Shown here: positions 5,734 to 23,862 of the stretch, one piece after another
How positions within the stretch are numbered: the stretch's first letter is position 1
Layout of the letters: each line of letters starts with the position of its first letter
Assembly (NCBI GenBank): GCA_947629345.1
Contig: CANRDK010000001.1
Span: forward strand, 1-46,669
From: an uncultured Clostridia bacterium
Lineage (GTDB): Bacteria; Bacillota; Clostridia; Christensenellales; Borkfalkiaceae
Reading direction: 5' to 3'
Length of the DNA: 46,669 bases
Notes under the pieces: model-generated
Told to the model about the DNA's origin: nothing
The model's database searches: none
What the model saw: the letters and a program-made list of their open reading frames with translations, nothing else
Program-made: the position numbers and the translations under genes

Positions 5734-5783
5734 GACCGTAATATGGGCGAATCTTGAAAAAATATTTGTTTTTGGAAAATCTT

Positions 5784-9451: not shown

Positions 9452-9480
9452 ATTATAGCACATGGGTGAATTTTTTTCAA
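9452..9480 (-). promoter_or_regulatory. sigma-A-type promoter for lysA
   Basis: Minus strand: TTGAAA, 17-nt spacer, TATAAT. A short leader with GGTGA precedes the ATG. Confidence 0.5.
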
Positions 9481-9481
9481 G

Positions 9482-9519
9482 AAAAAAAGGCACAATGGAA
9501 AGATTTTTCCAATTATGCC
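9482..9519 (-). terminator. rho-independent terminator after the DD-carboxypeptidase gene
   Basis: Minus strand: GGCATAATTGGAAA-loop-TTTCCATTGTGCC followed by T7. The 5' arm overlaps repeat copy 1. Confidence 0.6.
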
Positions 9520-9545
9520 TGACATAGTACTATGCAAAACCGTCA
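9512..9545. repeat. nested-palindrome element, copy 1 (intergenic, abutting the DD-carboxypeptidase stop codon)
   Basis: ATTATGCCTGACATAGTACTATGCAAAACCGTCA. Perfect 12-bp palindrome CATAGTACTATG at 9523-9534. Confidence 0.9.
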
Positions 9546-10703
9546 ATTCCAATTTTTCGCCGTCTCTTTGAAGGCATCCCACCAGCTATACGCAGGCGCA
9601 TCCTCCATGGAAACGAGCTTGACGCGGCCGATCTCCACGCCGTCGCGGTACAACACCGCCTCTCCCGCTTCATCCCCCTTCATGACGGGAGCCTTTAATC
9701 CGTGAAGGGAAATTTCCACATTGAGGTCCTTGCTCTCCCCCTTCTTTCCGAATGCGGAAAGGGACCTCTCGGCACACACCCCGATCTCCTTTACCTTGCT
9801 TCCGCTCACGGAAGATCTGTTTTCGATCTGTTCCCCCGCTTTCAAAACAATATGATTTTCGTAGCCGCCGAACGCTTCATCAAACAGTGAGGAGACGATC
9901 GCATTTCTGCTCTTGGAATTCTCCGCGCCGATGACGACGCTGATGATCCGCATTTCTCCCCGCTTCGCCGTTGCGGCAAGGCAGGAACCCGCCTCGTTCG
10001 TGAATCCCGTCTTTCCGCCGTCACAGCCCTGATAGAAGCGTATCAGTTTGTTTGTGTTGGTCATCTGCGTCGTCCTGCCGTCGGGATGCTGAAAATCTTC
10101 CATCCAAACCTTGGTGAGCTCAAAGTATTTTTCATGCTTTAAAAGTTCCTTGAGCATGACGGCGACATCCTTCGCGCAGGAATATTGCGGTTCCTTGGGG
10201 AGGCCTGTACAGTTTGCGAACAGGGTGTTTTCTGCGCCGAGTTCCCTTGCGCGGGCATTCATTTTATCGATAAAGGCGCTTTCGCTCCCCGCGACCCGCT
10301 CTGCGATGGCCACGCAGGAGTCGTTTGCCGAGCAAACTGCGATGGATTTGATGAGCTGTTCCGCAGGATAGCTGAGCCCCGCGTCCAAAAAGACCTGCGA
10401 TCCCCCCATTCCCGCGGCATTTTCGCTCACGGTGATCATCTCGTCGTAGGCAAGTTCCCCGCTCTCCACCGCCTCAAAGGATAGAAGCAGGGTCATGATC
10501 TTACACATGCTCGCGATCGGCAGCCGCTTTGTCTCCTCCATGGCGTAAATTTCGGTGCCCGTTTCATAGTCGCAGGAATATGCCGCCTTGCATCTCGGCG
10601 CCGTCTCAAGCGCAGAAACCTGCACACTGTTTCCCATCATCAATGTTGCCGCAAGCAGAGCGGCCGTACAGATCAATTTTTTCATATCCTCAGTTTGTAA
10701 CAT
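9543..10703 (-). CDS. D-alanyl-D-alanine carboxypeptidase (S11, PBP5 type with C-terminal domain)
   Basis: 386 aa. SxxK (ASMCKIMT) and SxN (CSANDS) motifs. Signal peptide from MKKLICTAALLAAT, so an alternative start at 10685 is possible. Confidence 0.85.
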   Translation of the reverse strand: MLQTEDMKKLICTAALLAATLMMGNSVQVSALETAPRCKAAYSCDYETGTEIYAMEETKRLPIASMCKIMTLLLSFEAVESGELAYDEMITVSENAAGMGGSQVFLDAGLSYPAEQLIKSIAVCSANDSCVAIAERVAGSESAFIDKMNARARELGAENTLFANCTGLPKEPQYSCAKDVAVMLKELLKHEKYFELTKVWMEDFQHPDGRTTQMTNTNKLIRFYQGCDGGKTGFTNEAGSCLAATAKRGEMRIISVVIGAENSKSRNAIVSSLFDEAFGGYENHIVLKAGEQIENRSSVSGSKVKEIGVCAERSLSAFGKKGESKDLNVEISLHGLKAPVMKGDEAGEAVLYRDGVEIGRVKLVSMEDAPAYSWWDAFKETAKNWN

Positions 10704-10719
10704 GCTACAAAAAATACTC

Positions 10720-11316
10720 TTACAAAATTTTACCTATCGGGTGAAAGAGTGCAAGCAGCAAGATCATCTCCGCAAGATAGATAAAGGCGATCATGACGAG
10801 AATGGTGAGAAAGTCCCGCAGAAGATCCCAAAAATCGGACGGGGTGAAACAGAAACGGAATGCCCGTCCGAAGGTGAGCGTTGCAGTTATGACAAGGAGC
10901 GCGTCGGTGAGTAGATGGTTCGGAATGTAAATGATGATGGAAACCATCGCGCCCGAGATTCCGTAATGGTCAAAAAACACATACAGACTTCCCCCAAACG
11001 TAAAGGCGCGGAAGATGAGCACGGCGATCGGGAGCAGGAGCGCCACGGGATGAATGCTCCCCACAAGGATCAGTGCGGCGAGCAGAGCGCATCCCCCCGC
11101 CCGCTGTAAAAATATCAAAAAGACGTTGGTATCGGAGAAACAGATCTCCGTAAGATAGCTGTCGCAGATGGATAAATGGTATTCATAGACGGCGGGACTG
11201 TCGAGAAAGCACATGCCGAGGATCGTGAATGTGAGCACGAGCACGGCGAGGAAGATCAATGTCTTTTTCCGTTCCCACGCACGGGAAAAGAAACTTTGCA
11301 TAAAAAACAGGTCCAT
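10720..11316 (-). CDS. spoIIM: stage II sporulation protein M-like integral membrane protein
   Basis: 198 aa with about 5 hydrophobic segments and SpoIIM-like size and topology. Assignment is from memory of the family and the sporulation context. Confidence 0.5.
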   Translation of the reverse strand: MDLFFMQSFFSRAWERKKTLIFLAVLVLTFTILGMCFLDSPAVYEYHLSICDSYLTEICFSDTNVFLIFLQRAGGCALLAALILVGSIHPVALLLPIAVLIFRAFTFGGSLYVFFDHYGISGAMVSIIIYIPNHLLTDALLVITATLTFGRAFRFCFTPSDFWDLLRDFLTILVMIAFIYLAEMILLLALFHPIGKIL

Positions 11317-11353
11317 ATCCTATGATATGAACCGTGTTTCGATAGAATTCTCC

Positions 11354-11415
11354 TCAAGTTTTCAGCATATTCTTCCGATGCCGTATCCCCTCGTCGAGTC
11401 GTTCAGGAAGACATG
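11354..11415. repeat. decayed duplicate of the spoIVB 3' end (direct repeat A flanking the TA cassette)
   Basis: 56 of 62 hand-aligned positions are identical to 12169-12234, plus one 4-nt indel. The minus strand would read HVFLNDSTRGYGIGRIC*, against native THVFLNDPTRGYGIGIENMLKN*. Confidence 0.85.
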
Positions 11416-11424
11416 AGAAAAGTA

Positions 11425-11751
11425 TTAAGTTTTAATACTCCGCAGGACGCGCTTGTAGTCGCGCTTTGCGTTGAACGCCGCTTTCACATGGACGGTATCG
11501 CTTCCCGCTTCAAACGTGTAGAAAATCAAATACTCTTTATGTACGAGAAAACGGTACCCTTGGCAGACAAGATTTCTGTCATCGGGAATCGCCCCTGCCT
11601 GCGGGAAATCGGCAAGGCGGGCCACTTCCGCCCTCAATTCTGCGACGAATTTCAAAGCGGTCTCGGCGTCCTTCGATACATCGAGAATATCCAGCGCGAT
11701 CTTCTTAAGATCCGCGATCGCGGTCTCTGTCATCAGTACTTTGCAGCGCAT
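11425..11751 (-). CDS. type II toxin, ParE/RelE superfamily
   Basis: 108 aa. ...AIADLKKIALDI... and GYRFLVHKEYLIFYTFE... are typical of the ParE/RelE fold. Starts 3 nt after the antitoxin stop. Confidence 0.8.
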   Translation of the reverse strand: MRCKVLMTETAIADLKKIALDILDVSKDAETALKFVAELRAEVARLADFPQAGAIPDDRNLVCQGYRFLVHKEYLIFYTFEAGSDTVHVKAAFNAKRDYKRVLRSIKT

Positions 11752-11754
11752 AGT

Positions 11755-12042
11755 TTACTCCGAGAGCGTCTTGACGATCTCATCGAACGCTGCGTCGATC
11801 GGCTTCACCCTGCCGAGCATCACGTCATCCTCCGACTGCGCCAGATGGGCATAGAGTTCAAGCCGCTCCTTCATTTCTTCCAGCGCAGCCTGTTGCGCAA
11901 GGTAGTCCTCATGGCTCATGAGAACGGTATCCTCCCTCCCGTTGACGGTGATCGCAACGGGATTCTGCCGCGTCAGAGCAGAGATCTGCCCGTAGTTGGT
12001 GCGAAGATCTTTGGATGGACGAATGGAAATTCCGACAGCCAT
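11755..12042 (-). CDS. type II antitoxin, Phd/YefM family
   Basis: ORF trimmed to ATG 12042, which follows GGGAGG. ...LRTNYGQISALTRQNPVAITVNGREDTVLMSHEDY... is the Phd/YefM N-terminal fold. Confidence 0.8.
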   Translation of the reverse strand: MAVGISIRPSKDLRTNYGQISALTRQNPVAITVNGREDTVLMSHEDYLAQQAALEEMKERLELYAHLAQSEDDVMLGRVKPIDAAFDEIVKTLSE

Positions 12043-12069
12043 CACATTACCTCCCTGTTCAGTAGTCAT

Positions 12070-12098
12070 ATTGTATCATAATTTGTCTACAATGTCAA
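12070..12098 (-). promoter_or_regulatory. sigma-A-type promoter of the TA operon with an internal inverted repeat (possible operator)
   Basis: Minus strand: TTGACA, 17-nt spacer, TACAAT. ATTGTA directly after the -35 is the inverted repeat of the -10 TACAAT. Confidence 0.55.
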
Positions 12099-12138
12099 TA
12101 AAATTCTATGTAATTTCCAATAAAAAGTTGTATTTGAT

Positions 12139-12164
12139 AAGTCCACGGGCATTCCCGTGGACTT
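12139..12164 (-). terminator. 11-bp perfect hairpin just downstream of the spoIVB stop codon
   Basis: AAGTCCACGGG-CATT-CCCGTGGACTT. The T-run on the minus strand is displaced by about 12 nt, so terminator function is uncertain. Confidence 0.4.
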
Positions 12165-12168
12165 ATAC

Positions 12169-12234
12169 TCAGTTTTTCAGCATATTCTCAATTCCTATGC
12201 CGTATCCCCTCGTCGGATCGTTCAGGAATACATG
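12169..12234. repeat. functional spoIVB 3' end (direct repeat B flanking the TA cassette)
   Basis: Partner of 11354-11415. See the finding on the TA cassette. Confidence 0.85.
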
Positions 12235-13179
12235 GGTGACTGCGCCGATCAGTTTTCCGTTCTGAACGATGGGACTGCCGCTCATGCCCTGAACGATGCC
12301 GCCCGTCTCCTCGATGAGCCGTTCATCCGTCACTTTGATGACAAAATTCTTGTTCTCCCTGTTGTCCGCATCTACCTTTGCGATGCAGATCTCATATTCT
12401 TGGGGGCAGATCCCGTCGATCGTGGAATAGATCACGGCTTTGCCGATGGTTGCCTCGGAAATGGGAGCGATCTCCACCGTCTCGCAGCGGGAAAAGTCAT
12501 AATTCCTGTCGAATGTTCCATACAGGCCCGTGTCGCACACGGTTTCAGCCTTGGCAATGTTCTTGTCGTTCAGAAAGAGCCCTCTGAGCTCCCCCGCCTT
12601 GCCGCGCTTGCCCTTGTTGACGCCGATCACACTGCAGAGATACACTTTCGGGTCCGAAATGTCAAGCGTCTGATTGTTCTCATCGCACACGGCATGCCCC
12701 AAAGAGCCGAATCTGAGCGTGTTTTTGTTGATAAACGTCACGGTGCCGATCCCCGTCAAGGTGTCGCGGATGAGCACACCGATCTTATATTTTCCGTTTT
12801 TCTTGTCCTTGACGGGCACAATGCCGATTTCGGCTGTTTCCCCGTCCCGCTTGACTGTAAATTTTACCTCTTTTCCCCCGCTCTTCTCGAGGGTGCGGTT
12901 CATGTCTGCGATCGTCTTGATTTGGATCCCGTCTGCGGCGCAGATGAGGTCCCCGACCTTGAGCCCGACTTCCTCGGCAGGACGGTGAATGCCGTCCTCC
13001 GCGTTTACCTCGCTCAGCCCGATGATCTCGGCGCCTCCCGCAGACAGCGAGAAACCGGCCGTCATTCCTCCTAAATAATATTCGTCAGAAGCGGCGTTTG
13101 CCCTAAGTCCCGTACCGCAGCAGACCGCAACGGTCAGAAAGATGGCGAAGGCCGCGAAAAAAAATTTCAGCTTACGCAT
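12169..13179 (-). CDS. spoIVB: SpoIVB peptidase (S55), stage IV sporulation signalling protease
   Basis: 336 aa. PDZ region (GLKVGDLICAADGIQIKT) and serine protease core (GTVTFINKNTLRFGSLGHAV, MSGSPIVQNGKLIGAVTHVF). Confidence 0.93.
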   Translation of the reverse strand: MRKLKFFFAAFAIFLTVAVCCGTGLRANAASDEYYLGGMTAGFSLSAGGAEIIGLSEVNAEDGIHRPAEEVGLKVGDLICAADGIQIKTIADMNRTLEKSGGKEVKFTVKRDGETAEIGIVPVKDKKNGKYKIGVLIRDTLTGIGTVTFINKNTLRFGSLGHAVCDENNQTLDISDPKVYLCSVIGVNKGKRGKAGELRGLFLNDKNIAKAETVCDTGLYGTFDRNYDFSRCETVEIAPISEATIGKAVIYSTIDGICPQEYEICIAKVDADNRENKNFVIKVTDERLIEETGGIVQGMSGSPIVQNGKLIGAVTHVFLNDPTRGYGIGIENMLKN

Positions 13180-13199
13180 GAAAACCTCCGTTTGGAGAT

Positions 13200-13228
13200 T
13201 ATTTTGCGTAAGCCGACAGCTTCTATTC
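13200..13228 (-). promoter_or_regulatory. possible forespore (sigma-F/G-type) promoter of spoIVB
   Basis: Minus strand: GAATA, 17 nt, CAAAATA, then GGAGG and the ATG. Compared with the GnATA / CATnnTA consensus from memory. Confidence 0.3.
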
Positions 13229-13245
13229 GGTTTGCCTTGATCCCA

Positions 13246-14937
13246 TTACAGGGATTTTTTGTAACTTTCAGCCTCGCCGATGAGTTCTCTCGCGTGCATC
13301 AGAGCGATCTCTCCCGTGTCACCGCCGATGAGCCGTGCGATCTCGCCGAGCCGCGCCTCCCCGTCCAGCGGATGGATATGCGTACACGTCCTGCCGCCAT
13401 CCTCTGTCTTTTCGATGAGAAAGTTCCGATCCGCGCAGGCGGCGATCCGAGCAAGGTGGGACACGGCAATAATTTGTGTATTTTTTGAGATCTTGCAGAA
13501 CTTTTCTCCGACGACTTTGGCCGTTTTCCCGCCGATCCCCGCGTCGATCTCATCAAAAATGTACGTTCCGATGCTACTCACATCGGAGAGCTGTGCCTTG
13601 ACGGCGAGCATGAATCTCGACATTTCGCCGCCGCTGATGATCTTGCCGAGCTCTTTCAACGGTTCCCCCTTGTTTGCTGAGAAGAGGAATTTCACGCCGC
13701 CGAGCCCCTCGGCCGTCGCATGGCCGACGTCGTCGCGGGAATAGTCCGCAAACTCGATCTCGAACCTCGCAGAGCCGATATTGAGCGTCGAAAGTTCCCT
13801 CGTCACCCGTGCGCAGAAGCCCTCCGCGGCGGCCTTTCTCTCCCTTGTCAGCTGTTCGCACGCCGAGAAGAGTTTCTCATCCGCCCGATTGAGCTCCTCT
13901 GTGAGTTCCTCGTACCGTTCGGCGCTGTTTTCGAGAAGGGAACACTCCTCCTGCGCCTTTTTGAGATATTCGATCGCGCTCTGCACCGTCCCGCCATACT
14001 TCTTTTTGAGCGTTCTGAGCTCATCGAGGCGGTTTTCCACCCGTTCCGCTTCCCGCTCGTTCACGTCGAGCTCGTCGAGCGCGCTCTCGGCCTCTTCCCC
14101 CACATCCTCGAGTTCGGCGGCCGAATTTTCGAGCCGTTCGGCAAGATCGGCATATTCTTTCACATACTTTGCAATGGAGCGGAGCGCATGGGCGGCACTG
14201 CGGACCCCGTCGAGGCATCCGCCGTCGGAGAGCAAACATTCTTTCGCCTCCGCGAGGCCGTCCTTGATCTTTTCTGCATTGCGGAACTTCTCGCGGGACT
14301 GCAAAAGTTCCTCTTCCTCGCCCTCTTTAAGTTCTGCACGCTGAAGTTCATCGATCTGAAAGCGGAGAATGTCGAGGCGACGGCTCCGCTCTCCCTCATC
14401 CCCGCCGAGCGTTTTGAGATCGTTCAAAATGGCCTTGCGGGCAGAGAGCCCCGCCGCAACTTCCTCTTTGGCCCTGACAACGGGCTCCCCTGCGATCGTA
14501 TCGAGAAGGCGGAGCTGGTTGCTCTCCTTCAATAAAAAGAAATGCTCGCTCTGCCCGTGGACGTCCACAAGGAGCGAGGTGATACGCCTGACCATGGCGG
14601 CAGTCACGGAACATCCGTTGAGTTTCAATGTGCCTCTTCCGTCAGAAGTGAGTTTTCTTGAGATGACGACCGTATCCTCCGCCTCAATATCCATCTCCTG
14701 CAGGAGCGCAAAAACGGCGGGGTCCTCCGTGGAAAACTCTGCTTGTACAAGACATTCATTCTCCCCGTAGCGCACCATTCCCTTATCGGCCTTGGCGCCG
14801 AGGACAAAATCGATACACTCCAAAATGACAGATTTTCCTGCGCCCGTCTCCCCAGAAAGGACGTTGAGCCCCTTGGAAAATTCGAGATCTGCCCGCTCGA
14901 TGAGTGCAACATTGCGGATCAAAAGACTCTTCAGCAT
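13246..14937 (-). CDS. recN: DNA repair protein RecN
   Basis: 563 aa. SMC-like Walker A (GETGAGKS), long coiled coil, C-terminal signature (GGEMSRFMLA) and Walker B (FDEIDAGIGG). Confidence 0.95.
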   Translation of the reverse strand: MLKSLLIRNVALIERADLEFSKGLNVLSGETGAGKSVILECIDFVLGAKADKGMVRYGENECLVQAEFSTEDPAVFALLQEMDIEAEDTVVISRKLTSDGRGTLKLNGCSVTAAMVRRITSLLVDVHGQSEHFFLLKESNQLRLLDTIAGEPVVRAKEEVAAGLSARKAILNDLKTLGGDEGERSRRLDILRFQIDELQRAELKEGEEEELLQSREKFRNAEKIKDGLAEAKECLLSDGGCLDGVRSAAHALRSIAKYVKEYADLAERLENSAAELEDVGEEAESALDELDVNEREAERVENRLDELRTLKKKYGGTVQSAIEYLKKAQEECSLLENSAERYEELTEELNRADEKLFSACEQLTRERKAAAEGFCARVTRELSTLNIGSARFEIEFADYSRDDVGHATAEGLGGVKFLFSANKGEPLKELGKIISGGEMSRFMLAVKAQLSDVSSIGTYIFDEIDAGIGGKTAKVVGEKFCKISKNTQIIAVSHLARIAACADRNFLIEKTEDGGRTCTHIHPLDGEARLGEIARLIGGDTGEIALMHARELIGEAESYKKSL

Positions 14938-14942
14938 AATTT

Positions 14943-15398
14943 TTATGATTTGACGATGGCGTTGAGACGTTCGGTGACCAACTTCGCCTCTTCGTTATTT
15001 TCACAGATGATGAGGACGGTGTCATCCCCCGAAATGCACCCGACGACTTCACGGTAGTCGAGATGATCGATGACAACGCCCGCGTTGGCGCCGTTTCCGT
15101 TCAGTGTCTTGACGACGATGAGATTTCCCACCGCACGGATCTCCAAGACACAGGTACGGAAGAGTGCACGCATCTTTTCCGAAAGGCCGCTCTCCTTCTC
15201 CGTCATCGACGCATAGCGGAAACGTTTTTGATTGCCCTTGACCTTGAAGAGATGAAGCTCCTTGATGTCGCGGGAGACAGTGGCCTGTGTGACCGAAAAA
15301 TTACAGGCGGCGAGCTGTTCGCAGAGCTCCTCCTGCGTCTCTATCTCCATCTTCTCGATGATCTCGAGGATCTTGGTGTGTCTTGCGTTCCTTAACAT
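14943..15398 (-). CDS. argR: arginine repressor
   Basis: 151 aa. ...QEELCEQLAACNFSVTQATVSRDIKEL... and C-terminal GTISGDDT-like motif (GCISGDDTVLI). Confidence 0.92.
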   Translation of the reverse strand: MLRNARHTKILEIIEKMEIETQEELCEQLAACNFSVTQATVSRDIKELHLFKVKGNQKRFRYASMTEKESGLSEKMRALFRTCVLEIRAVGNLIVVKTLNGNGANAGVVIDHLDYREVVGCISGDDTVLIICENNEEAKLVTERLNAIVKS

Positions 15399-15410
15399 AT
15401 TTTTCCCCTC

Positions 15411-16202
15411 TTAATTGATTTTTTGAGTGATTCTCAGAAAATAGCTCTTTTTATCCCTCGTCAAGAACGTTGCGCATCTTTTTGCCCTTCTCACGAGAAC
15501 TCTGTCGCCCGTTCCGACGCTCCCCAAATACTTCCCGTCGCCATACAGAAGCAAACTGTGCCCCTGCGGGATGGAGAAGGAGAGCGTTGCGGAAGCCGCG
15601 TAGACGATGGGACGGCTCTTCATGGAAAAGGCGCATATCGGCGTCAGGATGAATTCGTCGCATTCGGGCGTCAAGATGCTTCCGCCCGCCGAAAGCGAAT
15701 AGGCAGTGGAACCTGTGGGCGTTGCAACGATGACGCCGTCGGCGACGATCTCCCCCGCATCGCTCCCGTCAATTTGTACACAGATCTTGACGACTTTGTT
15801 CTCCTCTTCCGCAGAGACCCCGCGGTTGAGAGAGCATTCGTTGAGGCAAACGGTCTTTTCCCCGTTGAGTTCCACCTCGAGCATGGCGCGTTCGATCCTG
15901 TCGCACTCGAAAGAGAGTGCAAGCGAAGCGGCTCCGTCGAGTTCTCCCCTCTCAAATTCCGTCAAGAAACCCGTGTGGCCGTAATTGACGCCGAAGAGCG
16001 GGATCTTCAATTCGGCCGCGCGGCGGGCAGCCCTCAGAACGGTGCCGTCCCCGCCGAGGACGATCAGCCTGTCCACCGCAGAAATAGCATCCTCGGCATC
16101 AAAAATCTCCGCATCGGCTCCCGCCCTGCGCAGAATATTTTGAAGCAGGGAAGCGTCGTTGACATTCGCCTGCATCCTGTGATAGAAGATGCCGATTTTC
16201 AT
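15411..16202 (-). CDS. nadK: NAD kinase
   Basis: ORF trimmed to ATG 16202 (MKIGIFYH...). GGDGTVLRAAR and ATPTGSTAYSLSAGG motifs. Confidence 0.92.
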   Translation of the reverse strand: MKIGIFYHRMQANVNDASLLQNILRRAGADAEIFDAEDAISAVDRLIVLGGDGTVLRAARRAAELKIPLFGVNYGHTGFLTEFERGELDGAASLALSFECDRIERAMLEVELNGEKTVCLNECSLNRGVSAEEENKVVKICVQIDGSDAGEIVADGVIVATPTGSTAYSLSAGGSILTPECDEFILTPICAFSMKSRPIVYAASATLSFSIPQGHSLLLYGDGKYLGSVGTGDRVLVRRAKRCATFLTRDKKSYFLRITQKIN

Positions 16203-16284
16203 ACCGTCTAACATTATAGAACGAATTTCGCATAAAAGCAAGAGATTTTTTGCATAAATGCAAAAAAATTTTTACCAAGTTTCA

Positions 16285-17055
16285 TCAAGCGTTGCGGTCG
16301 AAATCGGCACAACGGCCCAAAAATTCGGCCAAAGAGAGGGAGTTTCCGCCTTCTTCCAAAAAAATGACATACTCAACGTTCTTTTTGGGGCGGATGGGCG
16401 CGTTGACGGCGTCCACAACGGCAAATCCAAGCCCGCCGGCAAAGCCGTAAAATTCCGTCAGCAGTTTTTTGTGGAGGTGCACGGGAAGGATCCCGCTCTT
16501 GCCGAGCCCCTTTCCATCGCATTCAAACTGCGGTTTGAAGAGAACAAATGCCCTTCCGCCTTCTTCAAGGATCTCATGGACTGCGGGGAGAACAAGGCGG
16601 AGCGAGATAAAGCTGAGATCGGCCGTAACAACGTCGATATTCTCGGGAAAATCGGCGCGGGAAAGATAGCGGGCGTTGGTTTCATCCATGACGACGACGC
16701 GCGGATCGCTAATGAGAAAACTGTCGAGCTGGCTCTTCCCCACGTCCACGCAGTAGACTTTTTTTGCGCCCCGTTTCAAAAGGCAATCGCAAAAGCCACC
16801 GTTGCTCGATCCCAAATCTGCCGCCACGACACCCTCGACGCTCACACGAAAGCAGGAAAGCCCCCGCTCAAGCTTAAAACCTCCGTTCGAGACAAAGGAA
16901 AGCTCCTCGGAGAGGAATTCAAACGCCTCATCCCCGCTCACTTCCTCCTTGGGGGAAACGGGCACGCCGCGGCACAAAACAAGCCCCCGCAAAAGCGCCT
17001 GCTGCGCCTTGGTGCGGGAGCCGAATTTTTCTGCAAAAAACTTATCTGCGCGCAT
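16285..17055 (-). CDS. tlyA: TlyA family rRNA (cytidine-2'-O)-methyltransferase
   Basis: 256 aa. S4-like N-terminus (MRADKFFAEKFGSRTKAQQALL) and FtsJ-type SAM domain (DLGSSNGGFCDCLL). Confidence 0.9.
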   Translation of the reverse strand: MRADKFFAEKFGSRTKAQQALLRGLVLCRGVPVSPKEEVSGDEAFEFLSEELSFVSNGGFKLERGLSCFRVSVEGVVAADLGSSNGGFCDCLLKRGAKKVYCVDVGKSQLDSFLISDPRVVVMDETNARYLSRADFPENIDVVTADLSFISLRLVLPAVHEILEEGGRAFVLFKPQFECDGKGLGKSGILPVHLHKKLLTEFYGFAGGLGFAVVDAVNAPIRPKKNVEYVIFLEEGGNSLSLAEFLGRCADFDRNA

Positions 17056-18748
17056 ATTTCAGGATCTCTCCGACGATTTTTTCCCTTCCGAGCCCATATT
17101 TCTCCATGAGAGACGGAACTTCGCCGTGCGGCAGGAAACAGTCCTCATAGCCAAAACTCAGAACGATTTTCCCGCTGTTGCGGTAAAAATCCAGAATGGC
17201 GGAGCCCAACCCGCCGATTTTGGCGTTGTCCTCGAGCGTGACAACGATTTTTTCACTGCGGGAATTCAAAAGCGCCTCATCGAGCGGCTTCAAAAAGCGT
17301 GCATTCACGATATTGCAGTCAAGTCCTTCCTTGTGCAGTTCCTCCCTTACAAGTTCTGCAAGCGTGATGCATCTCTCCCCCGCTGCCATGATTACTATGT
17401 CAGACATAGTACTATGTAAAACCTCAAATTTCCCAATTTCGACGGAGCTGCATTCCCCCTCTTCCCCCGCACGCGGATAGCGAATAGCGAGCGGGTGGGC
17501 ATATTCCGTGCTGAGGCGGAGCATTTGGCGGAATTCTGCGATATTTTTCGGGATCGCGATCGCAAGATTCGGAATAAAGGAGAGATAGGAAAGATCGAAA
17601 ACGCCCTGATGGGTCTCTCCGTCCGCCCCCGTCGCCCCTGCTCTGTCGATACAGAAGGTCACGGGAAGGTCCTGCCCGCAGACGTCGTGAATGATCTCGT
17701 CGAATGCCCTCTGCAAGAACGTGGAATAGATCGCATAGTATGGCTTTAATCCCTGCGTCCCGAGGGAGGCCGCAAGCACGGAGGCATGCTCTTCGCAGAT
17801 CCCCACGTCGAAGGAACGTTCGGGGAACCTTTCAAAGAAGGGCCGAAGCCCCAAACTGTCCGTCATGGCAGCCGTGATCGCGACGATTTTTTCGTCTTTT
17901 TCGGCCAAAGCGCTCAGCTCTTCGCCGAGTGCGGCGGAATATTCCTTCTGCTCCGACTTTGGCCCCACGCCGTGCGTCTGCATGGGTGCGTTCTCGCAAA
18001 ACGGATATCCCCGCCCCTTCTGCGTGACGACGTGCAGGAGCACCGTCTCCTCTCTCACCGCCTCCTTTGCCTGCTCGAGGGCGGGAAGGAGCTCTTCAAT
18101 GCAATTCCCGTTGACGGGTCCCATGTAGCGGAGGCCGAACCGCTCGAACAGGGCGACATCCTCCATCGGCTTGCCGCTCTGCCGCAGTTCCTCCAACACC
18201 TCATGTGCCCCGCCGACTGTCGGCGAGATGGACATGCCGTTGTCATTCAAAATGATCAGGACTTTCGTATGTAAGATCTTCAGGCTGTTCAATGCCTCAT
18301 AGATGAGCCCGTTCTGAAAGGAGCCGTCGCCGATGAGCGCGATCACATGAAAATCTTCCCCGTTGAGGTCGCGTGCCTTGCCGATGCCGAGCGCCGCGGA
18401 GAGAGCAGTCCCCGCATGGCCGGTGTCGTAGCAGTCGTAGACGCTCTCTTCCCGCTTCGGAAAGCCCGAAATGCCGCCCTCTTTCCGCAATGTGTGGAAT
18501 TTCTCCGCACGGCCTGAGAGCAACTTGTGCGTATAGCACTGATGGCCGACATCAAAGATGAGCTTATCCTTGGGAAAGTCAAAGACGCGGTGAAGGGCAA
18601 CCGTGAGCTCCACGGCGCCCAAATTGGAGGAAAGGTGTCCTCCGCAGACCGAAACGGTTTGATAGATCGTACTCCTGAGTTCCTCGCAGAGCACGTTCAA
18701 TTGCGCAACGGAGGCATTTTTCAGCTCCCTGCTCTTAAAATTATTCAT
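17042..18748 (-). CDS. dxs: 1-deoxy-D-xylulose-5-phosphate synthase
   Basis: 568 aa. GGHLSSNLGAVELTVALH, GHAGTALSAALG and IGDGSFQNG (ThDP) motifs, with a transketolase-like C-terminus. Confidence 0.95.
   Translation of the reverse strand: MNNFKSRELKNASVAQLNVLCEELRSTIYQTVSVCGGHLSSNLGAVELTVALHRVFDFPKDKLIFDVGHQCYTHKLLSGRAEKFHTLRKEGGISGFPKREESVYDCYDTGHAGTALSAALGIGKARDLNGEDFHVIALIGDGSFQNGLIYEALNSLKILHTKVLIILNDNGMSISPTVGGAHEVLEELRQSGKPMEDVALFERFGLRYMGPVNGNCIEELLPALEQAKEAVREETVLLHVVTQKGRGYPFCENAPMQTHGVGPKSEQKEYSAALGEELSALAEKDEKIVAITAAMTDSLGLRPFFERFPERSFDVGICEEHASVLAASLGTQGLKPYYAIYSTFLQRAFDEIIHDVCGQDLPVTFCIDRAGATGADGETHQGVFDLSYLSFIPNLAIAIPKNIAEFRQMLRLSTEYAHPLAIRYPRAGEEGECSSVEIGKFEVLHSTMSDIVIMAAGERCITLAELVREELHKEGLDCNIVNARFLKPLDEALLNSRSEKIVVTLEDNAKIGGLGSAILDFYRNSGKIVLSFGYEDCFLPHGEVPSLMEKYGLGREKIVGEILKYARR
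17391..17426. repeat. nested-palindrome element, copy 2 (in-frame inside dxs)
   Basis: ATTACTATGTCAGACATAGTACTATGTAAAACCTCA. Palindrome at 17405-17416. The minus-strand sense encodes EVLHSTMSDIVI. Confidence 0.9.
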
Positions 18749-18751
18749 AAT

Positions 18752-19621
18752 TTAATGATCTCTATTTCTGACAAGCGAGACGATCCCCTCGAAAAAGTCA
18801 GTCTGTTCGGTGAGGTCCGCGATTGCCTGTCTGCACTTGAGAACGTACTCATCCGCAAGCATTTCGGCCTTTTGCATGCCGAAAACCTTCATGCAGGTGA
18901 GTTTATCCTCGATTTTGTCCTTGCCGAGGGTCTTGCCCATGCGGCCGTCTGTGCCCTTTTCGTCTAAAATATCATCTGTCAGTTGAAACAGGATGCCTAA
19001 ATTTCTCCCAAACGCTTCCGCCGCTTCCACATTTCCGTCGGCGAGAACGGCCGCCATTTCGAGAGGCGCGGAGATCAGGCGTCCCGTCTTGTTTTCATAG
19101 ATGAAGAGAAGTTCCTTCTCCCCTGCCTCTTTGCCCGAATAGAGCAGATCTGCCGACTGCCCTGCGATCATTCCCTCCGCACCTGCGGCATGGGAAAGCC
19201 TCTGCGCCGCAACAAGGTGTCTTTGGTCCCTTGCGGCGGCCCTGAGAAGAAGGTCGAAGGCATAGCTCAAAAGCGCATCCCCGGCAAGTATGGCGTTCGC
19301 TTCGCCGAAAACTCTGTGGTTGGAGAACTTTCCGCGGCGGAAATCGTCGTTGTCCATCGCGGGAAGGTCGTCGTGGATGAGCGAATAGGTGTGGATACAT
19401 TCGATGGCGACGGCGAGCTCCTTCTCCTGCAAATAATCCTGTCCCAACGCGTCGAGCGCAGCATAAAAAAGGACGGGACGGATGCGTTTTCCTCCCGCAA
19501 GGAGGGAATAGCGCATACTCTCCGTCAAAACAGGCGGCAGAAAGTGCATCGCGGCGGCATATTCCGCGAGTCCCTGTTCCACCGCACTCAGATACTCATT
19601 GTATTTTTCCTTGAAGTTCAT
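18752..19621 (-). CDS. ispA: polyprenyl (farnesyl/geranylgeranyl) diphosphate synthase
   Basis: 289 aa. First DDxxD region (LIHDDLPAMDNDDFRRG) and second (FQLTDDILD). Confidence 0.9.
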   Translation of the reverse strand: MNFKEKYNEYLSAVEQGLAEYAAAMHFLPPVLTESMRYSLLAGGKRIRPVLFYAALDALGQDYLQEKELAVAIECIHTYSLIHDDLPAMDNDDFRRGKFSNHRVFGEANAILAGDALLSYAFDLLLRAAARDQRHLVAAQRLSHAAGAEGMIAGQSADLLYSGKEAGEKELLFIYENKTGRLISAPLEMAAVLADGNVEAAEAFGRNLGILFQLTDDILDEKGTDGRMGKTLGKDKIEDKLTCMKVFGMQKAEMLADEYVLKCRQAIADLTEQTDFFEGIVSLVRNRDH

Positions 19622-20466
19622 ACAGCCGTCCGTTCCGCAGCATCCACGGTATTGGAGAGAAGCATTGCGATCGTCATCGGTCCGACGCCGCCGGGTACAG
19701 GCGAGATCATGGAAACTTTTTCCGCGACGTTTTCAAAGTCCACATCGCCGCAAAGTTTCCCGTTTTCATCCCTGTTCATTCCTACGTCGATGACAACTGC
19801 CCCTTCCTTGACCATATCTGCCGTAATATATTTCGCTCTTCCGATCGCCACGACCAAAATATCCGCTCCTGCGCAGATCTCTTTCAAATTCTGTGTTTTG
19901 GAATGGCAAACGGTGACCGTTGCGTCTGCATTGAGGAGGCGCAGGGCCATCGGCCGTCCCACAATATTGCTCCTGCCGACCACGACGGCATGTTTCCCCC
20001 TCGTCTCCACATGGTATCGCTTCAGAAGTTCCATGATCCCGCGCGGGGTGCAGGATACCGTCCCCTCCCTGTGCAGGGCGAGAAGACCCATATTCTGTTC
20101 CGAAAAGCCGTCTACGTCCTTTTCCACGGGGATCTTTGCAAGGATCTTTCTCTCGTCAAGGTGGCGCGGAAGAGGGAGCTGGACGAGGACCCCGTGGACA
20201 GAATGATCACCCGCAAGTGCCTCCACTGCCCTTTCGGCCTCCTCTTGGGAGATCTCTGCGGGCAATCGGAGCACATGGGAAGAGATGCCGACCTCTTCGC
20301 AGGCCCTAACTTTGTTGCGGACATACACTTCGGAGGCGGGATCGTTTCCGATGAGCACGACGCCGAGCCCGATCTTTCTGCCGTTCCTCTCTTCGAATGC
20401 GGCAGCGCGGAGACTGAGCTCCCCCCGTATCTCCGCAGCAGTCTGTTTCCCGTCGATGAGCGTCAT
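19618..20466 (-). CDS. folD: bifunctional methylenetetrahydrofolate dehydrogenase/cyclohydrolase
   Basis: 282 aa. ...VYVRNKVRACEEVGI..., VVGRSNIVGRPMA and PVPGGVGPMTIAML motifs. Confidence 0.95.
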   Translation of the reverse strand: MTLIDGKQTAAEIRGELSLRAAAFEERNGRKIGLGVVLIGNDPASEVYVRNKVRACEEVGISSHVLRLPAEISQEEAERAVEALAGDHSVHGVLVQLPLPRHLDERKILAKIPVEKDVDGFSEQNMGLLALHREGTVSCTPRGIMELLKRYHVETRGKHAVVVGRSNIVGRPMALRLLNADATVTVCHSKTQNLKEICAGADILVVAIGRAKYITADMVKEGAVVIDVGMNRDENGKLCGDVDFENVAEKVSMISPVPGGVGPMTIAMLLSNTVDAAERTAV

Positions 20467-20852
20467 GCGTTGATGATCCCCCCGAGCAGACCGTTCACGA
20501 AGTCGGTGGAGTTGGCTGAGGAGTACTTTCTCGCCAAATTTGTCGCCTCGCTGACGGAGACGACGGGCGGAATATCGTCAAAATATTTGATCTCCGCAAG
20601 CGCAACGAGCATGATCGCCCGATCCACCGCAAAGATACGATCGTCGGGATAGCGTGTGGTCCTCTCGGATATGATCGAAAGGAATTCCTCCCTGTGTGTG
20701 TTCACGCAGTCGATGAGCGCCTCCGCAAACGAGGCGTCCTCCTCCGACAGATGATCATGACGAAAGACGGATCGGCGGAGCTCCCCGTCATCCTCATGAA
20801 ACAGATCCGAAAATATGACCTTGAATGCCGCTTCCCGTGCGTCGCTTCTCAT
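20463..20852 (-). CDS. nusB: transcription antitermination factor NusB
   Basis: ORF trimmed to the ATG at 20852 (MRSDAREAAFKVIF...). ...AIMLVALAEIKYFDDIPPVVSVSEATNLARKY... is typical NusB. Confidence 0.9.
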   Translation of the reverse strand: MRSDAREAAFKVIFSDLFHEDDGELRRSVFRHDHLSEEDASFAEALIDCVNTHREEFLSIISERTTRYPDDRIFAVDRAIMLVALAEIKYFDDIPPVVSVSEATNLARKYSSANSTDFVNGLLGGIINA

Positions 20853-20900
20853 GCTTTTCTCCCAAAGTAAGATTCCCCCTGTCATTGCAAGGGGGAAACT

Positions 20901-21281
20901 TCAATTATTATTTACCGTATCCTCTTGGACCGTCTGCTCGGCGGAACTGTCGGGCTGTGTGGCGTCGGGGAAAACAACACTCTGCACATGCACATCCACC
21001 TTGGCGATCTTGTACTTTGTCATGGACTCGACCATCTGTTTGATATTCTGCTGGATGCGATAGGCGAGTTCAGGGACCTTATATCCATAGTGGGCGATCA
21101 CGGAAATGTCCACAAAGATCCCCTCCTTTTCAAAGCAGAGCTTGATGCCCTTGCTCTTGGAGGGAACGAGCTCGATGCCCTCCGTTTCCTGCAGACTCAG
21201 GACGACGATCCCGCTCACGATATCGGAATTATAGGTGATTTTCCCCTTTTGGCCGTTCGGATTATATTTGATGCTTGCCAT
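20901..21281 (-). CDS. Asp23/Gls24 family envelope stress protein
   Basis: 126 aa. ...ITYNSDIVSGIVVLSLQETEGI... matches the Asp23 family. Position matches yqhY upstream of nusB. Confidence 0.85.
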   Translation of the reverse strand: MASIKYNPNGQKGKITYNSDIVSGIVVLSLQETEGIELVPSKSKGIKLCFEKEGIFVDISVIAHYGYKVPELAYRIQQNIKQMVESMTKYKIAKVDVHVQSVVFPDATQPDSSAEQTVQEDTVNNN

Positions 21282-21339
21282 AATAGCTCCTTTGAAGCCT
21301 ATTATAGCACATTCTTTTAGAATTTACCACTGTTTTTTC

Positions 21340-21825
21340 TTAACTTTCTGCATAAACGGGCATAATAATTACATTTCCGTTGCGGACATTGTACTCAATT
21401 TCGAGGGCATAAAAGATTTTTGTGATATTGTCCTCGGTGAGCTCGTCGGAATTGACAAAGACGTTGATATTGTTCGCATCGGTGATGGTGACGGCGGCGT
21501 CCGAAAATCCGATGGCCTTGATGATGGATTCGAGCACGAGTTCATCCTCCATGAGTTCGACAAGGTCCTGCTTCTTTGCAACGGCCTGTGTGTATTCCGC
21601 CGAATCCTTGGCGTAGGCTGCGATGACGCTGTCGAGCTGGACGAGTTCTTCGCTGCGCGTGGAGTTGCGGGTATCTCTGTACGTCGTGAAGTAGGTCGCC
21701 TTGACGGCGGCGCTGCCGTCAACGGGGGTGTTCTGCGTGCCAGCAAGGACGAAGTTGACAACGGCAACTACGGCGAGCAGCAGGACGAGGGTGGACATGA
21801 TCGCGATCTTTTTTGTGTTGGACAT
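21340..21825 (-). CDS. spoIIIAH: stage III sporulation protein AH (SpoIIIAH-like)
   Basis: 161 aa, N-terminal membrane anchor plus a YscJ/FliF-like C-terminal region. Last gene of the spoIIIA operon by position. Confidence 0.75.
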   Translation of the reverse strand: MSNTKKIAIMSTLVLLLAVVAVVNFVLAGTQNTPVDGSAAVKATYFTTYRDTRNSTRSEELVQLDSVIAAYAKDSAEYTQAVAKKQDLVELMEDELVLESIIKAIGFSDAAVTITDANNINVFVNSDELTEDNITKIFYALEIEYNVRNGNVIIMPVYAES

Positions 21826-21854
21826 GGTTTTATCTCCTTACTACAATAATTTCC

Positions 21855-22202
21855 TTATTTTCCCGCGGGATAGACGAGAATGTCCCGCGTTCTGAGGGAG
21901 AGAGCGCTTGCGGCCACCTCCATGAGCCTTGTGCGGAGCAGGATCCCGTCCTCCCCCTTGAATATGACGACTGCGCTTACAGGCCTCCCCTCCTGTTCGG
22001 TGATCATGACGGTGGCAGACTTCACGCCATCGATCTCCCCGAGGAGAACGCTCAGACGCCTCTCCTGCTCGGTTGCCTCATAGGCGGAGGGACTGCTTGG
22101 GCGGAAAAAGACAAAATAGACGAGAAGGAGCAGGAGGAGCGCAGCCGCCCCGATGAGGACGAGGCGGAAGGTCTTATTCTTGAATAGTTCTCGGATCTTC
22201 AC
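21855..22202 (-). CDS. spoIIIAG: stage III sporulation protein AG (short form)
   Basis: 115 aa, single N-terminal TM, ...VKSATVMITEQEGRPVSAVVIF... Position between AF and AH. Confidence 0.65.
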   Translation of the reverse strand: MKIRELFKNKTFRLVLIGAAALLLLLLVYFVFFRPSSPSAYEATEQERRLSVLLGEIDGVKSATVMITEQEGRPVSAVVIFKGEDGILLRTRLMEVAASALSLRTRDILVYPAGK

Positions 22203-22657
22203 CCTTCCTCGACCTCCACATCGCAGCCGTACCGTTCCAATAGCCGCTCTCTTGCCGCAGACATTATATCTATATGACTTTCTTCCCCGTTTATTCCGAA
22301 ATTGGTGACCCTCACAACGATTTTTTGATAGGAAAAATCGTCGGAAGAACGCGAAACGATGACAAACGACTCAACGCCGTACTCCTCCGTCATCCATGCG
22401 GAGATCTCCGCTTCGTCTGCCTCAGAGAGCTTCATGGCGTATTTCCTCAAAAAGACATCGTCCTCCCTCATCTCAGCGCTCGGAAAGAATGTTTCGGGCT
22501 CCTTTGCGAAGCGGACAAAGGGTGAAATGAGAACGACAAAGATAAAGAGACGGGAGATGGACTTCACAAACTTCCCCATCTTGCCGCTCGGGGCGATGAT
22601 GGAAATGACGGCGGAGATCAAAACGACGCCCGCAACACTCAGCACATACCCCTTCAT
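22199..22657 (-). CDS. spoIIIAF: stage III sporulation protein AF
   Basis: ORF trimmed to the ATG overlapping the spoIIIAE stop (TGATG). Two N-terminal TM segments. Position in the operon. Confidence 0.75.
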   Translation of the reverse strand: MKGYVLSVAGVVLISAVISIIAPSGKMGKFVKSISRLFIFVVLISPFVRFAKEPETFFPSAEMREDDVFLRKYAMKLSEADEAEISAWMTEEYGVESFVIVSRSSDDFSYQKIVVRVTNFGINGEESHIDIMSAARERLLERYGCDVEVEEG

Positions 22658-23862
22658 CAGAAAAACACCCCCGACGAACAAACCAACAGCAAGATCGAAA
22701 GAAAGTACAGAAAGGCGATACAGAGCAGCCCTGCGAGGAAAAAGCTACAGTCCCCCGCAAGACGGGACAAAAATGCAGAGATCTTGCCCCCGACGGGCTC
22801 CGTCGCCGCCGCGGCCATCCGCAAAAAGAGCTGAAAGACCACAAACAAGAGGACAGGGCGGAGGATGGTCCCGAAGAGCAGAAAGACCGCAAAGGAACCG
22901 AGCGCATTCTTGATAAGAGAGCTCCCGGCAACGACGAGTTCTACCCCGCCTGACAGAAATCCGCCGACGAGAGGCACGGACCCCGAAAGGACATATTTCG
23001 CCGCCTTGAGGGAGATCCCGTCGTACTGCGCCGCGGCGATCCCCTGTACCGTCAAAAAGACAGAAAAGAGCCCCAAAGTTAGTCCTATCAGCCACTTGTT
23101 GACGCTCTTAAAGAGCTCACCGAGCTTTTCGGTACGCACTTCCTCCGAGAGATTTCCCACAAAGGCGAGAACAATGACGACGACGGAGGTCGGTAGGATG
23201 ACGGAGGTGAAGAGTTCGCAGATCCCCCCGCTCATGAATGCCACGGCGGGACGGAAGATCCCCACCGAGACTGCGCCCCCGCTTGCCGCCATGAGGGTTA
23301 GAAGGAGCGGATACACGAGCTCCATCTGCCGCTGCATGGAGGAAATTGCCGAAAAGCCCGCATCGAGCACCGAAATGAGGCATGCAAGCACCGCGGCTCC
23401 CACGGAAAGATAGCCCACGAAATGTATTATGTCTGACATAGTACTATGCAAAAGCTCACTTTTCGCAGAATTGAGGATGCCACAGAGGAGGGTCACAGCC
23501 AAAATGATCGCAAATGCGGGGAGCATGATCTTCCCCTCGTCCCAGATGAGAGATAAGACTGCGCTTGTAAGGGAGCTGTAATCGAGATCGAGATCCCCCG
23601 TGATGACGCCGAGAAGTTTATCTTTGACTGAGAGCCCGCGGAAGGACGAAAGAGTATCGAGATAGTTTTGCAGCTCCTCCGTATCGAGCGCGCCAATGAG
23701 ATCCTTGATATTCTCATTGAGAAGATCGGAAGCGGCCTGTTCCCCCTCCGATTTGCCGCTTGCGCTTGCCTTTATCCCCACCCCGAGGCTCAGCAAAAAA
23801 AGAAACAGCAGACCCAAGGCAAGGATAAGGACCCTTTTCCGTCCCCGTTTCCGCCCCATCAT
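22657..23862 (-). CDS. spoIIIAE: stage III sporulation protein AE
   Basis: ORF trimmed to the ATG overlapping the spoIIIAD stop. Signal-like N-terminus and a polytopic membrane protein (...LLTLMAASGGAVS...) as in SpoIIIAE. Confidence 0.85.
   Translation of the reverse strand: MMGRKRGRKRVLILALGLLFLFLLSLGVGIKASASGKSEGEQAASDLLNENIKDLIGALDTEELQNYLDTLSSFRGLSVKDKLLGVITGDLDLDYSSLTSAVLSLIWDEGKIMLPAFAIILAVTLLCGILNSAKSELLHSTMSDIIHFVGYLSVGAAVLACLISVLDAGFSAISSMQRQMELVYPLLLTLMAASGGAVSVGIFRPAVAFMSGGICELFTSVILPTSVVVIVLAFVGNLSEEVRTEKLGELFKSVNKWLIGLTLGLFSVFLTVQGIAAAQYDGISLKAAKYVLSGSVPLVGGFLSGGVELVVAGSSLIKNALGSFAVFLLFGTILRPVLLFVVFQLFLRMAAAATEPVGGKISAFLSRLAGDCSFFLAGLLCIAFLYFLSILLLVCSSGVFF
23425..23458. repeat. 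nested-palindrome element, copy 3 (in-frame inside spoIIIAE)
   Basis: TATTATGTCTGACATAGTACTATGCAAAAGCTCA. Palindrome at 23437-23448. The minus-strand sense encodes ELLHSTMSDII. Confidence 0.9.

Follow-up and report, generated by a model that had tools for sequence, protein, structure and literature searches.

A window of 46,669 nt from an uncultured Clostridia bacterium (Borkfalkiaceae; contig CANRDK010000001.1, positions 1 to 46,669 of the forward strand) carries a cluster of conserved sporulation and housekeeping genes: spoIIIAB-AF, nusB, folD, ispA, dxs, tlyA, nadK, argR, recN, spoIVB, a dacB-like gene and lysA. A short, partly palindromic DNA element recurs three times among these genes (Table 1). 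Its 12-bp palindrome, CATAGTACTATG, is present at 9523, 17405 and 23437, against a chance expectation of 0.02 for the window, and none of 100 shuffles reaches a count of three. Even with one mismatch allowed, there are no further copies in the window. The original prediction, made from the letters of the window, that these repeats are real and not due to chance and that the 12-mer has no other copy is thus confirmed. Its sequences and coordinates are also correct, but the shared element is better delimited as a 28-mer, TTTTRCATAGTACTATGTCWGRCATART on the minus (gene-sense) strand, which holds every copy of CATAGTACTATG.

Across the three copies, the minus-strand reading of the 28-mer is TTTT[G/A]CATAGTACTATGTC[A/T]G[A/G]CATA[A/G]T. 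When up to two mismatches are permitted, the core palindrome TATGTCNGACATA is found in the window at the three copies and at one weak match (26736, two mismatches; 0.66 matches expected). Site 2 includes a perfect 19-bp palindrome, TACTATGTCWGACATAGTA (17393–17411), with the geometry TACT-N11-AGTA. As had been noted, one copy is intergenic and two lie within genes, which are dxs and spoIIIAE. The copies had also been described as co-oriented; the genes around them are all on the minus strand, so that each copy is in the sense orientation relative to its neighbours.

Table 1. Copies of the repeated element and associated features in the window
Feature	Position	Strand	Remarks
Site 1	9512–9539	minus	28-mer TTTTGCATAGTACTATGTCAGGCATAAT; intergenic, follows the stop codon of the dacB-like gene
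Site 2	17394–17421	minus	28-mer TTTTACATAGTACTATGTCTGACATAGT; within dxs, reads V-L-H-S-T-M-S-D-I-V
Site 3	23426–23453	minus	28-mer TTTTGCATAGTACTATGTCAGACATAAT; within spoIIIAE, reads L-L-H-S-T-M-S-D-I-I
dxs (1-deoxy-D-xylulose-5-phosphate synthase)	17042–18748	minus	hosts site 2; TIGR00204, 608 bits
spoIIIAE (stage III sporulation protein AE)	22657–23862	minus	hosts site 3; start according to homologs of 401 aa
dacB-like gene (D-alanyl-D-alanine carboxypeptidase)	9543–10703	minus	
Intrinsic-terminator-like hairpin of the dacB-like gene	9488–9520	minus	−16.1 kcal/mol, z = −5.4
lysA sigma-70-type promoter-like site	9452–9480	minus	TTGAAA-17-TGcTATAAT; 11 of 12 matches plus TG extension
Conserved polytopic membrane protein	10720–11316	minus	198 aa

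Sites 2 and 3 share a reading frame and encode LHSTMSDI(V/I). This frame is forced, as TAG or TAA interrupts both other sense frames. In Dxs, the stretch F-E-[VI]-L-H-S-T-x-S-D-I is free of insertions and deletions (indels) in 60 aligned homologs (67–99 % identity), and in SpoIIIAE the stretch x-S-T-M-S-D-I-I is native, again without indels, in 120 homologs. Judged from these alignments, the coding copies did not arise by insertion. Within the element, synonymous-codon identity is 0.89 in dxs, compared with 0.50 gene-wide (standard deviation 0.10), which ranks first of 557 windows along the gene; in spoIIIAE it is 0.73, compared with 0.46 (standard deviation 0.09), and ranks sixth of 387. The element draws on codons that are rare across the 46.7-kb stretch (TTA, 3 % of Leu; AGT, 6 % of Ser; ACT, 8 % of Thr; ATA, 4 % of Ile; GTA, 8 % of Val). 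Rare codons together with high synonymous-codon identity indicate that the peptide is conserved through its nucleotides, and the coding sites are kept by selection on the DNA itself.

The window was compared with five syntenic relatives, L001, L003, L004, L005 and L006, in which Dxs identity ranges from 87 % down to 68 % (L002 is a second assembly with the same Dxs protein as L001). The original prediction had considered that the repeat might be absent from the same loci in close relatives. This is not so: the three sites are at identical places in all five, including L004, which has no lysA downstream of the dacB-like gene, and the order of the genes between and around the copies is identical in the six genomes. 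As these assemblies are independent, a polishing artefact at the three sites of the window is unlikely. The intergenic copy is conserved in each of the relatives while its flanks diverge. A fourth site is present upstream of an FMN-reductase gene in L001, and the corresponding sequence in the window is degenerate and has the same length; sites are therefore gained and lost by substitution.

A wider search of related genomes, also proposed in the original prediction, reveals the motif in many loci and in diverse contexts. A scan of one genome per species with the pattern AGTACTATGTNNGRCATART yields at least 118 matching stretches, of which approximately 70 % are intergenic and almost all are in metagenome-assembled genomes (MAGs) of uncultured gut Clostridia from rabbit, chicken, sheep and human sources, with labels including Gallimonas, Borkfalkia, Neoclostridium, Pumilibacteraceae and Christensenella. 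The clade concerned is one of uncultured spore-forming gut Clostridia (MAGs labelled Gallimonas, Borkfalkia, Coproplasma and Christensenella-like). Single MAGs are matched on several contigs, as in Lapin-032__bin118, probably the MAG of the window (L073, L090 and L119), and the flank TTTTGCAT is conserved among the matches though not demanded by the pattern. The hit-centred loci, 829 kb in all, contain 152 sites with up to four mismatches to the 20-mer, compared with two in shuffles. Approximately 38 of the 152 are additional to the matches that brought the loci in, which gives a density of about one site per 20 kb (15–25 kb). This agrees with the three sites in the window and, by extrapolation, corresponds to roughly 100 sites per genome. 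Viral contigs are not enriched, with 36 single matches, about the number due to chance on a rough estimate of the size of the collection. A literature search for the element sequence gave nothing relevant.

The element consists of three half-sites, CATAGTA, TACTATG and CATA[A/G]TA. The second and third form a dimer-spaced palindrome of 19 bp, TACTATGTC-W-GACATAGTA (W being A or T), which has the form TACT-N11-AGTA and also ATGT-N3-ACAT. The first half-site abuts the second, and this generates both the 12-bp palindrome and the asymmetry of the site; at the position where a partner of the first half-site would lie, the sequence is A/T-rich only. In the profile of intergenic sites, W tracts with about equal A and T are located at approximately −26, −16 and −6 and at +28, +38 and +49. 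These tracts are symmetric about the centre of TATGTC-W-GACATA (approximately ±17 and ±27 bp) and phased at approximately 10 bp, which suggests bent or wrapped DNA. Predicted RNA folds of the three copies differ from one another and are no better than those of shuffles (z = 0.15, −0.38 and −0.58), and at the gathering threshold only tRNAs, and no match to the element, are found by Rfam in the window and 14 loci. The element appears to act as double-stranded DNA.

Some intergenic regions contain arrays of three to five bare 17-bp palindromes, AYTATGTCWGACATART, at an irregular spacing of approximately 21–40 bp (L016, approximately 7380–7530; L067, approximately 5590–5720; L096, approximately 1500–1580; L049; L052; L053). 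The arrays of L016 and L067 lie upstream of a dGTPase-like HD-domain gene, and the next open reading frame (ORF) appears, on a partial reading, to be dnaG. An array-adjacent gene was considered as the candidate regulator and set aside, as the L067 array precedes the dGTPase-like gene and no regulator.

The genomic contexts of the sites were assigned with a codon-based gene caller, which reproduces the deposited gene calls for L001. Within coding sequences there are 37 sites in sense and 4 in antisense orientation. Between co-directional genes the corresponding numbers are 33 and 9, and a further 18 sites lie between convergent and 7 between divergent genes. The coding sense sites, which include those in Dxs, SpoIIIAE, MiaA, an HI0933-like flavoprotein and a U32 peptidase, are always in the STMSDII frame. 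Approximately 25 sites start between −22 and +20 nt from the stop codon of the upstream gene, and several occupy the entire intercistronic spacer, in the order stop codon, site, Shine–Dalgarno sequence, ATG. The neighbouring genes are diverse housekeeping genes (thrS, folA, rsfS, pyrK, dinB, glmM, an endonuclease-IV-like gene, lysA and a ynbB-like gene). The FMN-reductase gene has its site in the 5′ untranslated region (5′UTR), downstream of a canonical promoter, and in six genomes the thrS site lies between the T-box terminator and the Shine–Dalgarno sequence. The thrS T-box leader (L013, 2718–2892; equivalents in L015, L024, L077 and L103) is absent from the default Rfam search because its score of 59.6 bits (E = 1e-12) is below the gathering threshold of 93 bits.

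MiaA carries its site approximately 50 codons ahead of the stop codon, read as ..L-x-S-T-M-S-D-I-I.., in L008, L028, L029, L051, L055, L071, L078, L079, L087, L100, L114, L121, L122 and L124. The site-bearing protein is presumably of the same length there as MiaA of Bacillus. In these loci the site is approximately 110–120 nt upstream of the next gene, which encodes a pyridoxal-phosphate-dependent protein and is ynbB-like by eye; in L085 and L102, the ynbB-like gene instead has a site 11–12 nt ahead of its start codon. There is one credible antisense coding copy, in L076 (approximately 3200–3230), read as H-I-M-P-D-I-V-L-I-D. The single open frame of the element on the reverse strand can therefore also accommodate coding.

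At the dacB–lysA locus, site 1 begins 3 nt past the TGA stop codon of the dacB-like gene (9545–9543), and the inferred start of lysA transcription lies approximately 75 nt downstream of the centre of its palindrome. The putative lysA promoter is downstream of site 1 and outside the element, and no credible small ORF is present in the intergenic copy. The right half of site 1 (AGGCAUAAU...) forms the 5′ arm of the terminator-like hairpin of the dacB-like gene, which is followed by a run of seven Us (9488–9482). Equivalent hairpins are present in L003 (18618–18650) and L004 (18417–18442); in the relatives, a G-C pair involving the variable R position of the site is replaced by A-U, a compensatory change, and the T-run is invariant in the alignment. 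A terminator role was considered as a property of the whole class and rejected. A loose downstream inverted half-site accompanies 24 of 72 sites, only four of them with a T-run, compared with seven matches in control windows; the terminator pairing is therefore specific to this locus.

The sites are strongly polar. Among de-duplicated intergenic sites, 42 are oriented with the G-rich (leading) strand and 5 against it. The ratio is 15 to 1 (p = 5e-4) between convergent or divergent genes, a context in which the polarity cannot be due to the orientation of the neighbours. For comparison, 79.5 % of genes are co-oriented with the G-rich strand. The sites in the window, L161 and L163 agree with this orientation.

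Clustering of the genes adjacent to sites gives one cluster of PadR-family proteins. In five Clostridia MAG loci (L112, L105, L044, L059 and L007), these are long PadR-like proteins of 480–767 aa. From the N terminus they consist of a PadR winged-helix domain (PF03551), a conserved linker, a coiled-coil-like region rich in E, R, K and A, which is variable (100–400 aa), a conserved juxtamembrane motif and four predicted transmembrane (TM) helices. In all five, ATTATGTCWGACATAGTACT lies approximately 10 nt upstream of the TTGACA-17-TATAAT promoter of the gene. The same arrangement is seen in L098, L161 and L163, none of which was selected through that copy of the motif (L161 and L163 were fetched through protein homology). 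In total, the site is found 8–30 nt upstream of the −35 box in eight of nine loci with a long PadR gene, antisense to the gene and upstream of its promoter. The association persists while the upstream neighbour varies (a membrane protein, a thioesterase, an Xer-like recombinase).

The closest solved relatives of the PadR domain are members of PadR subfamily 2 (PadR-s2), namely 1xma, LmrR and cdPadR1 of C. difficile (5dym). cdPadR1 binds TACT(N11-12)AGTA / GTACTAT..AGTA in its own promoter, and its genome has approximately 200 matches to the motif (PMC5050560). Copy 2 of the window, TACTATGTCTGACATAGTA, has the TACT-N11-AGTA form bound by cdPadR1, and in copies 1 and 3 AATT/AATA replaces AGTA. 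One of the long PadR genes belongs to a relative of the window with 81 % Dxs identity, which also has the spoIIIAE site (L104 and L105, MAG Lapin-012__bin59).

Small PadR genes of Bacteroidota (79–127 aa; Bacteroides, Bacteroidales and Prevotellaceae MAGs), which the scan for the element also brought up, have a longer related palindrome, AGTACTATGT..GGCATAGTACT, located 42–102 nt upstream (L033, approximately 288; L037, approximately 7304; L048, approximately 504). These genes point to a PadR subfamily that prefers such half-sites and spans phyla. Homologs of the long protein in databases are mostly truncated fragments. In L162 (positions 4001–6620; GCA_965353415.1), the PadR domain (168 aa) and the coiled-coil and TM part (703 aa) are separate, adjacent ORFs; the gene in L161 also appears split, possibly through an assembly problem in the repetitive coiled-coil region. 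A literature search for membrane-anchored PadR proteins gave nothing specific.

The three copies in the window are members of a genome-wide class of sites, which probably bind an autoregulated, membrane-anchored PadR-type protein; we infer both the identity of this protein and the effect of its binding. The sites share with the operators of cdPadR1 and other PadR-s2 proteins the outer half-sites and their spacing (TACT-N11-AGTA, GTACTAT), the ATGT/ACAT inverted repeats, a site at the promoter of the regulator itself, an A/T-rich context, which is important in those operators, and a large number of matches in the genome. The DNA-binding domain of the candidate is also a clear PadR-s2 homolog. 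They differ in that the centre is a conserved GTC-W-GAC, where the spacer of PadR-s2 operators is A/T-rich, and in having a third, abutting half-site that confers asymmetry, a strand polarity, and conserved positions in essential genes and between convergent genes. The known proteins are soluble and of approximately 110 aa, whereas the candidate has a coiled-coil-like region of 100–500 aa and four TM helices, and no ligand or detoxification regulon is evident here.

A class of chromosomal binding sites had been among the original suggestions. That part is supported, with a class defined at the level of DNA, orthologous positions, nucleotide-level selection and phased tracts. Membership of the SlmA, Noc or parS classes is not, and the candidate binder is a PadR rather than a TetR or ParB protein. 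With the SlmA consensus cited at the time, GTGAGTACTCAC, CATAGTACTATG shares only the six central bases AGTACT, and no resemblance is seen to the parS or Noc-binding site (NBS) consensus. In their number (tens to approximately 100), palindromic cores and conserved intragenic positions, the sites are comparable with Noc–NBS, SlmA and SlmA-binding sites (SBS), MatP–matS, ParB–parS, RacA–ram, and RefZ and RefZ-binding motifs (RBM). Noc and RacA link DNA to the membrane or the cell pole. Unlike in these systems, the sites are asymmetric and strand-polar and the candidate is PadR, not ParB, TetR or MerR.

Several other explanations were weighed. The sites may belong to a different DNA-binding protein, such as a nucleoid-associated, nucleoid-occlusion or segregation factor or a PadR paralog, with the site at the PadR gene being just another member. 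The existence of the class, its symmetry, its tolerance of intragenic positions and its copy number do not identify the binder, and the sites adjoin many unrelated genes. This is nevertheless rather unlikely, as the site is fixed in place and orientation at the PadR-like promoter in eight of nine loci with differing neighbours, and the core fits the demonstrated geometry of PadR-s2 operators. An element acting in RNA (an RNase site, a target of a small RNA or protein, or a translational control in leaders, spacers and 3′ ends) could account for the prevailing co-orientation with transcription (37 versus 4 coding sites and 33 versus 9 between co-directional genes), for the many sites directly before a Shine–Dalgarno sequence or between it and the thrS T-box terminator, and for the terminator stem to which the right arm of copy 1 belongs. 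It is improbable given that the folds differ among copies, are no better than shuffles and lack an Rfam match, that the flanking W tracts are symmetric about the palindrome, and that bare palindromes form arrays. In addition, the copy at the PadR gene is antisense and upstream of the promoter, and in convergent and divergent contexts the orientation tracks the strand and not the neighbouring gene. A small mobile or repeated palindromic element, of the type of repetitive extragenic palindromic (REP) sequences with their REP-associated tyrosine transposases (RAYT) or of the Rickettsia palindromic elements, which spreads also in-frame, was one of the original suggestions and is very improbable. 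The sites are repeated and partly palindromic, are enriched at the 3′ ends of genes and between convergent genes (18 convergent versus 7 divergent), and in some places form arrays or inverted pairs; single-strand transposition, too, is known to be strand-biased relative to replication. However, Dxs and SpoIIIAE are without indels and of the same length as their homologs, the difference between the window and L001 consists of equal-length substitutions, and orthologous positions are kept down to 68 % protein identity. Hairpins are weak and not stable, only copy 1 being part of a strong hairpin, for which it uses locus-specific downstream sequence, and viral contigs show no enrichment.

Two further possibilities are both highly improbable. 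An internal or alternative-sigma promoter, with TACTAT or CATAAT as its −10 box, would suit the two −10-like hexamers of the element, the TTGAAA 17 nt upstream of TACTAT in L079 and L084, and the several copies directly ahead of genes. Against this, conservation in the spacer equals that in the hexamers, no −35 box is conserved, and by eye the spacing does not fit the sigma A, E, F, G and K consensus sequences. Copies also lie downstream of canonical promoters, after the T-box terminator, upstream of the lysA promoter, between convergent genes, where a promoter would not be expected, and antisense, and a scan gives no promoter-like site overlapping copies 2 or 3, the only nearby match being approximately 150 nt downstream of copy 2. 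A DNA-uptake signal sequence (USS) could combine a core with helically phased A/T tracts, lie within genes in a tolerated frame without indels, be shared by a clade and occur near terminators. Known uptake sequences are present at about one per kb, and at about one per 20 kb the element is 20 times less dense; its very high information content and strong strand polarity also argue against uptake, and in Firmicutes no sequence-specific DNA uptake is known. The known short repeats, namely USS and the related DNA uptake sequences (DUS), REP sequences and Rickettsia palindromic elements, resemble the element in occurring within genes in a particular frame, in their association with terminators and, for USS, in phased A/T tracts. 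The element differs from Rickettsia palindromic elements in the lack of indels and from REP sequences in its weak hairpins, and its orthologous positions are deeply conserved. Least probable of all is a target of site-specific recombination (dif/Xer-like, or an attachment site), which had also been suggested. The 28-bp length and the co-orientation of the three copies in the window are suggestive, and ACTATG[T/C]AAAA bears a loose resemblance to the XerD arm of Firmicutes dif. However, recombination among approximately 100 co-oriented copies would delete core genes, such as those between the copies in the window, and gene order is the same in six genomes. The copies in the window have neither a recombinase nor mobile DNA next to them, and the central spacing does not fit the 11-6-11 arrangement.

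Several observations weigh against a class of sites bound by the long PadR-like protein. The gene is absent from the window, and its presence elsewhere in the MAG of the window is an assumption. The candidate was assigned through operator geometry and the site at its own promoter; the true binder could instead be a further PadR paralog or a different protein. At the distant homolog locus L162 there is a different upstream inverted repeat, ATTCTGTCTG ... CAGACAGAAT, approximately 29 nt apart. In L001, L003 and L006 the dxs site is partly degenerate, with an altered central half-site, so that not all orthologous copies need be bound. The scan pattern forces the asymmetric flank AGT, which biases both the counts and the asymmetric consensus towards that form. 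The polarity is derived from local GC skew in 8-kb pieces of MAG contigs, a proxy for replication direction, and is confounded with gene orientation except in the 16 convergent or divergent cases. Finally, the position of the site relative to promoters is inconsistent (approximately −75, approximately −54, in the 5′UTR, after the T-box terminator, between cistrons), which argues against a simple repressor regulon.

On the PadR reading, the predicted binder would be a clade-specific PadR–coiled-coil–4TM protein whose own promoter carries the site, and a bound site would be part of a stable, asymmetric nucleoprotein complex anchored at the membrane. Where a site lies between cistrons, or separates a start codon from its promoter or leader, this complex may serve as an operator or roadblock. 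For sites within genes, between convergent genes and directly after stop codons, chromosomal position and tethering could matter too. The non-promoter positions, intragenic nucleotide conservation and strand polarity point to a role in tethering or organisation and to a complex that replication must be able to pass, and the leading-strand orientation would fit passage from the weaker side. Sites came about in place, by substitution, and in dxs and spoIIIAE selection on the nucleotides keeps them in the only open sense frame of the element.

A more specific proposal is tentative and, in our view, doubtful: that a membrane-anchored winged-helix protein on approximately 100 asymmetric, leading-strand-oriented sites tethers or organises the chromosome, the sites being polar barriers like those of RTP–Ter, each with a strong and a weak dimer site, and the passable orientation being selected. 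In B. subtilis there are about nine Ter sites round the terminus, in two opposed groups. RTP–Ter has overlapping strong and weak sites for winged-helix dimers, a site at the promoter of the protein itself and an orientation fixed relative to replication forks (PMC10331603). The type of dimer, the unequal overlapping sites, the polarity, the own-promoter site and the orientation relative to forks (here through the GC-skew proxy) are alike. In contrast to RTP–Ter, the sites here number approximately 100 over many contigs, the protein belongs to PF03551 and not to RTP, it has a membrane anchor, and no sign of fork arrest is seen. RTP–Ter and the present sites are alike in design and no further; copy number, distribution and protein family differ.

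If the proposal is correct, this would be a previously undescribed system for chromosome organisation or fork control in spore-forming Clostridia, with sites important enough to be written in rare codons into dxs, spoIIIAE and miaA. Tethering or polar barriers would represent a new solution for chromosome organisation or replication control. Noc, RacA, RTP and Tus are not known from Clostridia, and no search for these was made here. If the protein is only a regulator, its regulon would still be unusually broad for PadR, and its architecture unusual. The candidate membrane-anchored PadR-like protein and approximately 100 strand-polar sites constitute a testable pair in uncultured gut Clostridia. 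In addition, the conserved peptide LHSTMSDI, which unrelated essential proteins have in common throughout the clade, is dictated by a DNA motif, a clear example of a non-coding constraint on coding sequence.

Some minor observations concern known binding sites and the annotation of the window. Known consensus sequences were fitted to the element by eye and rejected for misfits of spacing or sequence; these were promoters of sigma A, E, F, G, K, H, B and 54, the boxes of Spo0A, SpoIIID, CodY, Fur, LexA, NiaR, PlcR and ArgR, and the dif and hix sites. The open frame of spoIIIAE reaches 23949 (TTG), 29 codons beyond the start at 23862 used by its homologs, and overlaps spoIIIAD. In Bacillus subtilis, spoIVB is followed by spo0A; no spo0A was seen at the corresponding position in the window, and the 198-aa membrane protein, which is without a family match, is encoded there, between spoIVB and the dacB-like gene.

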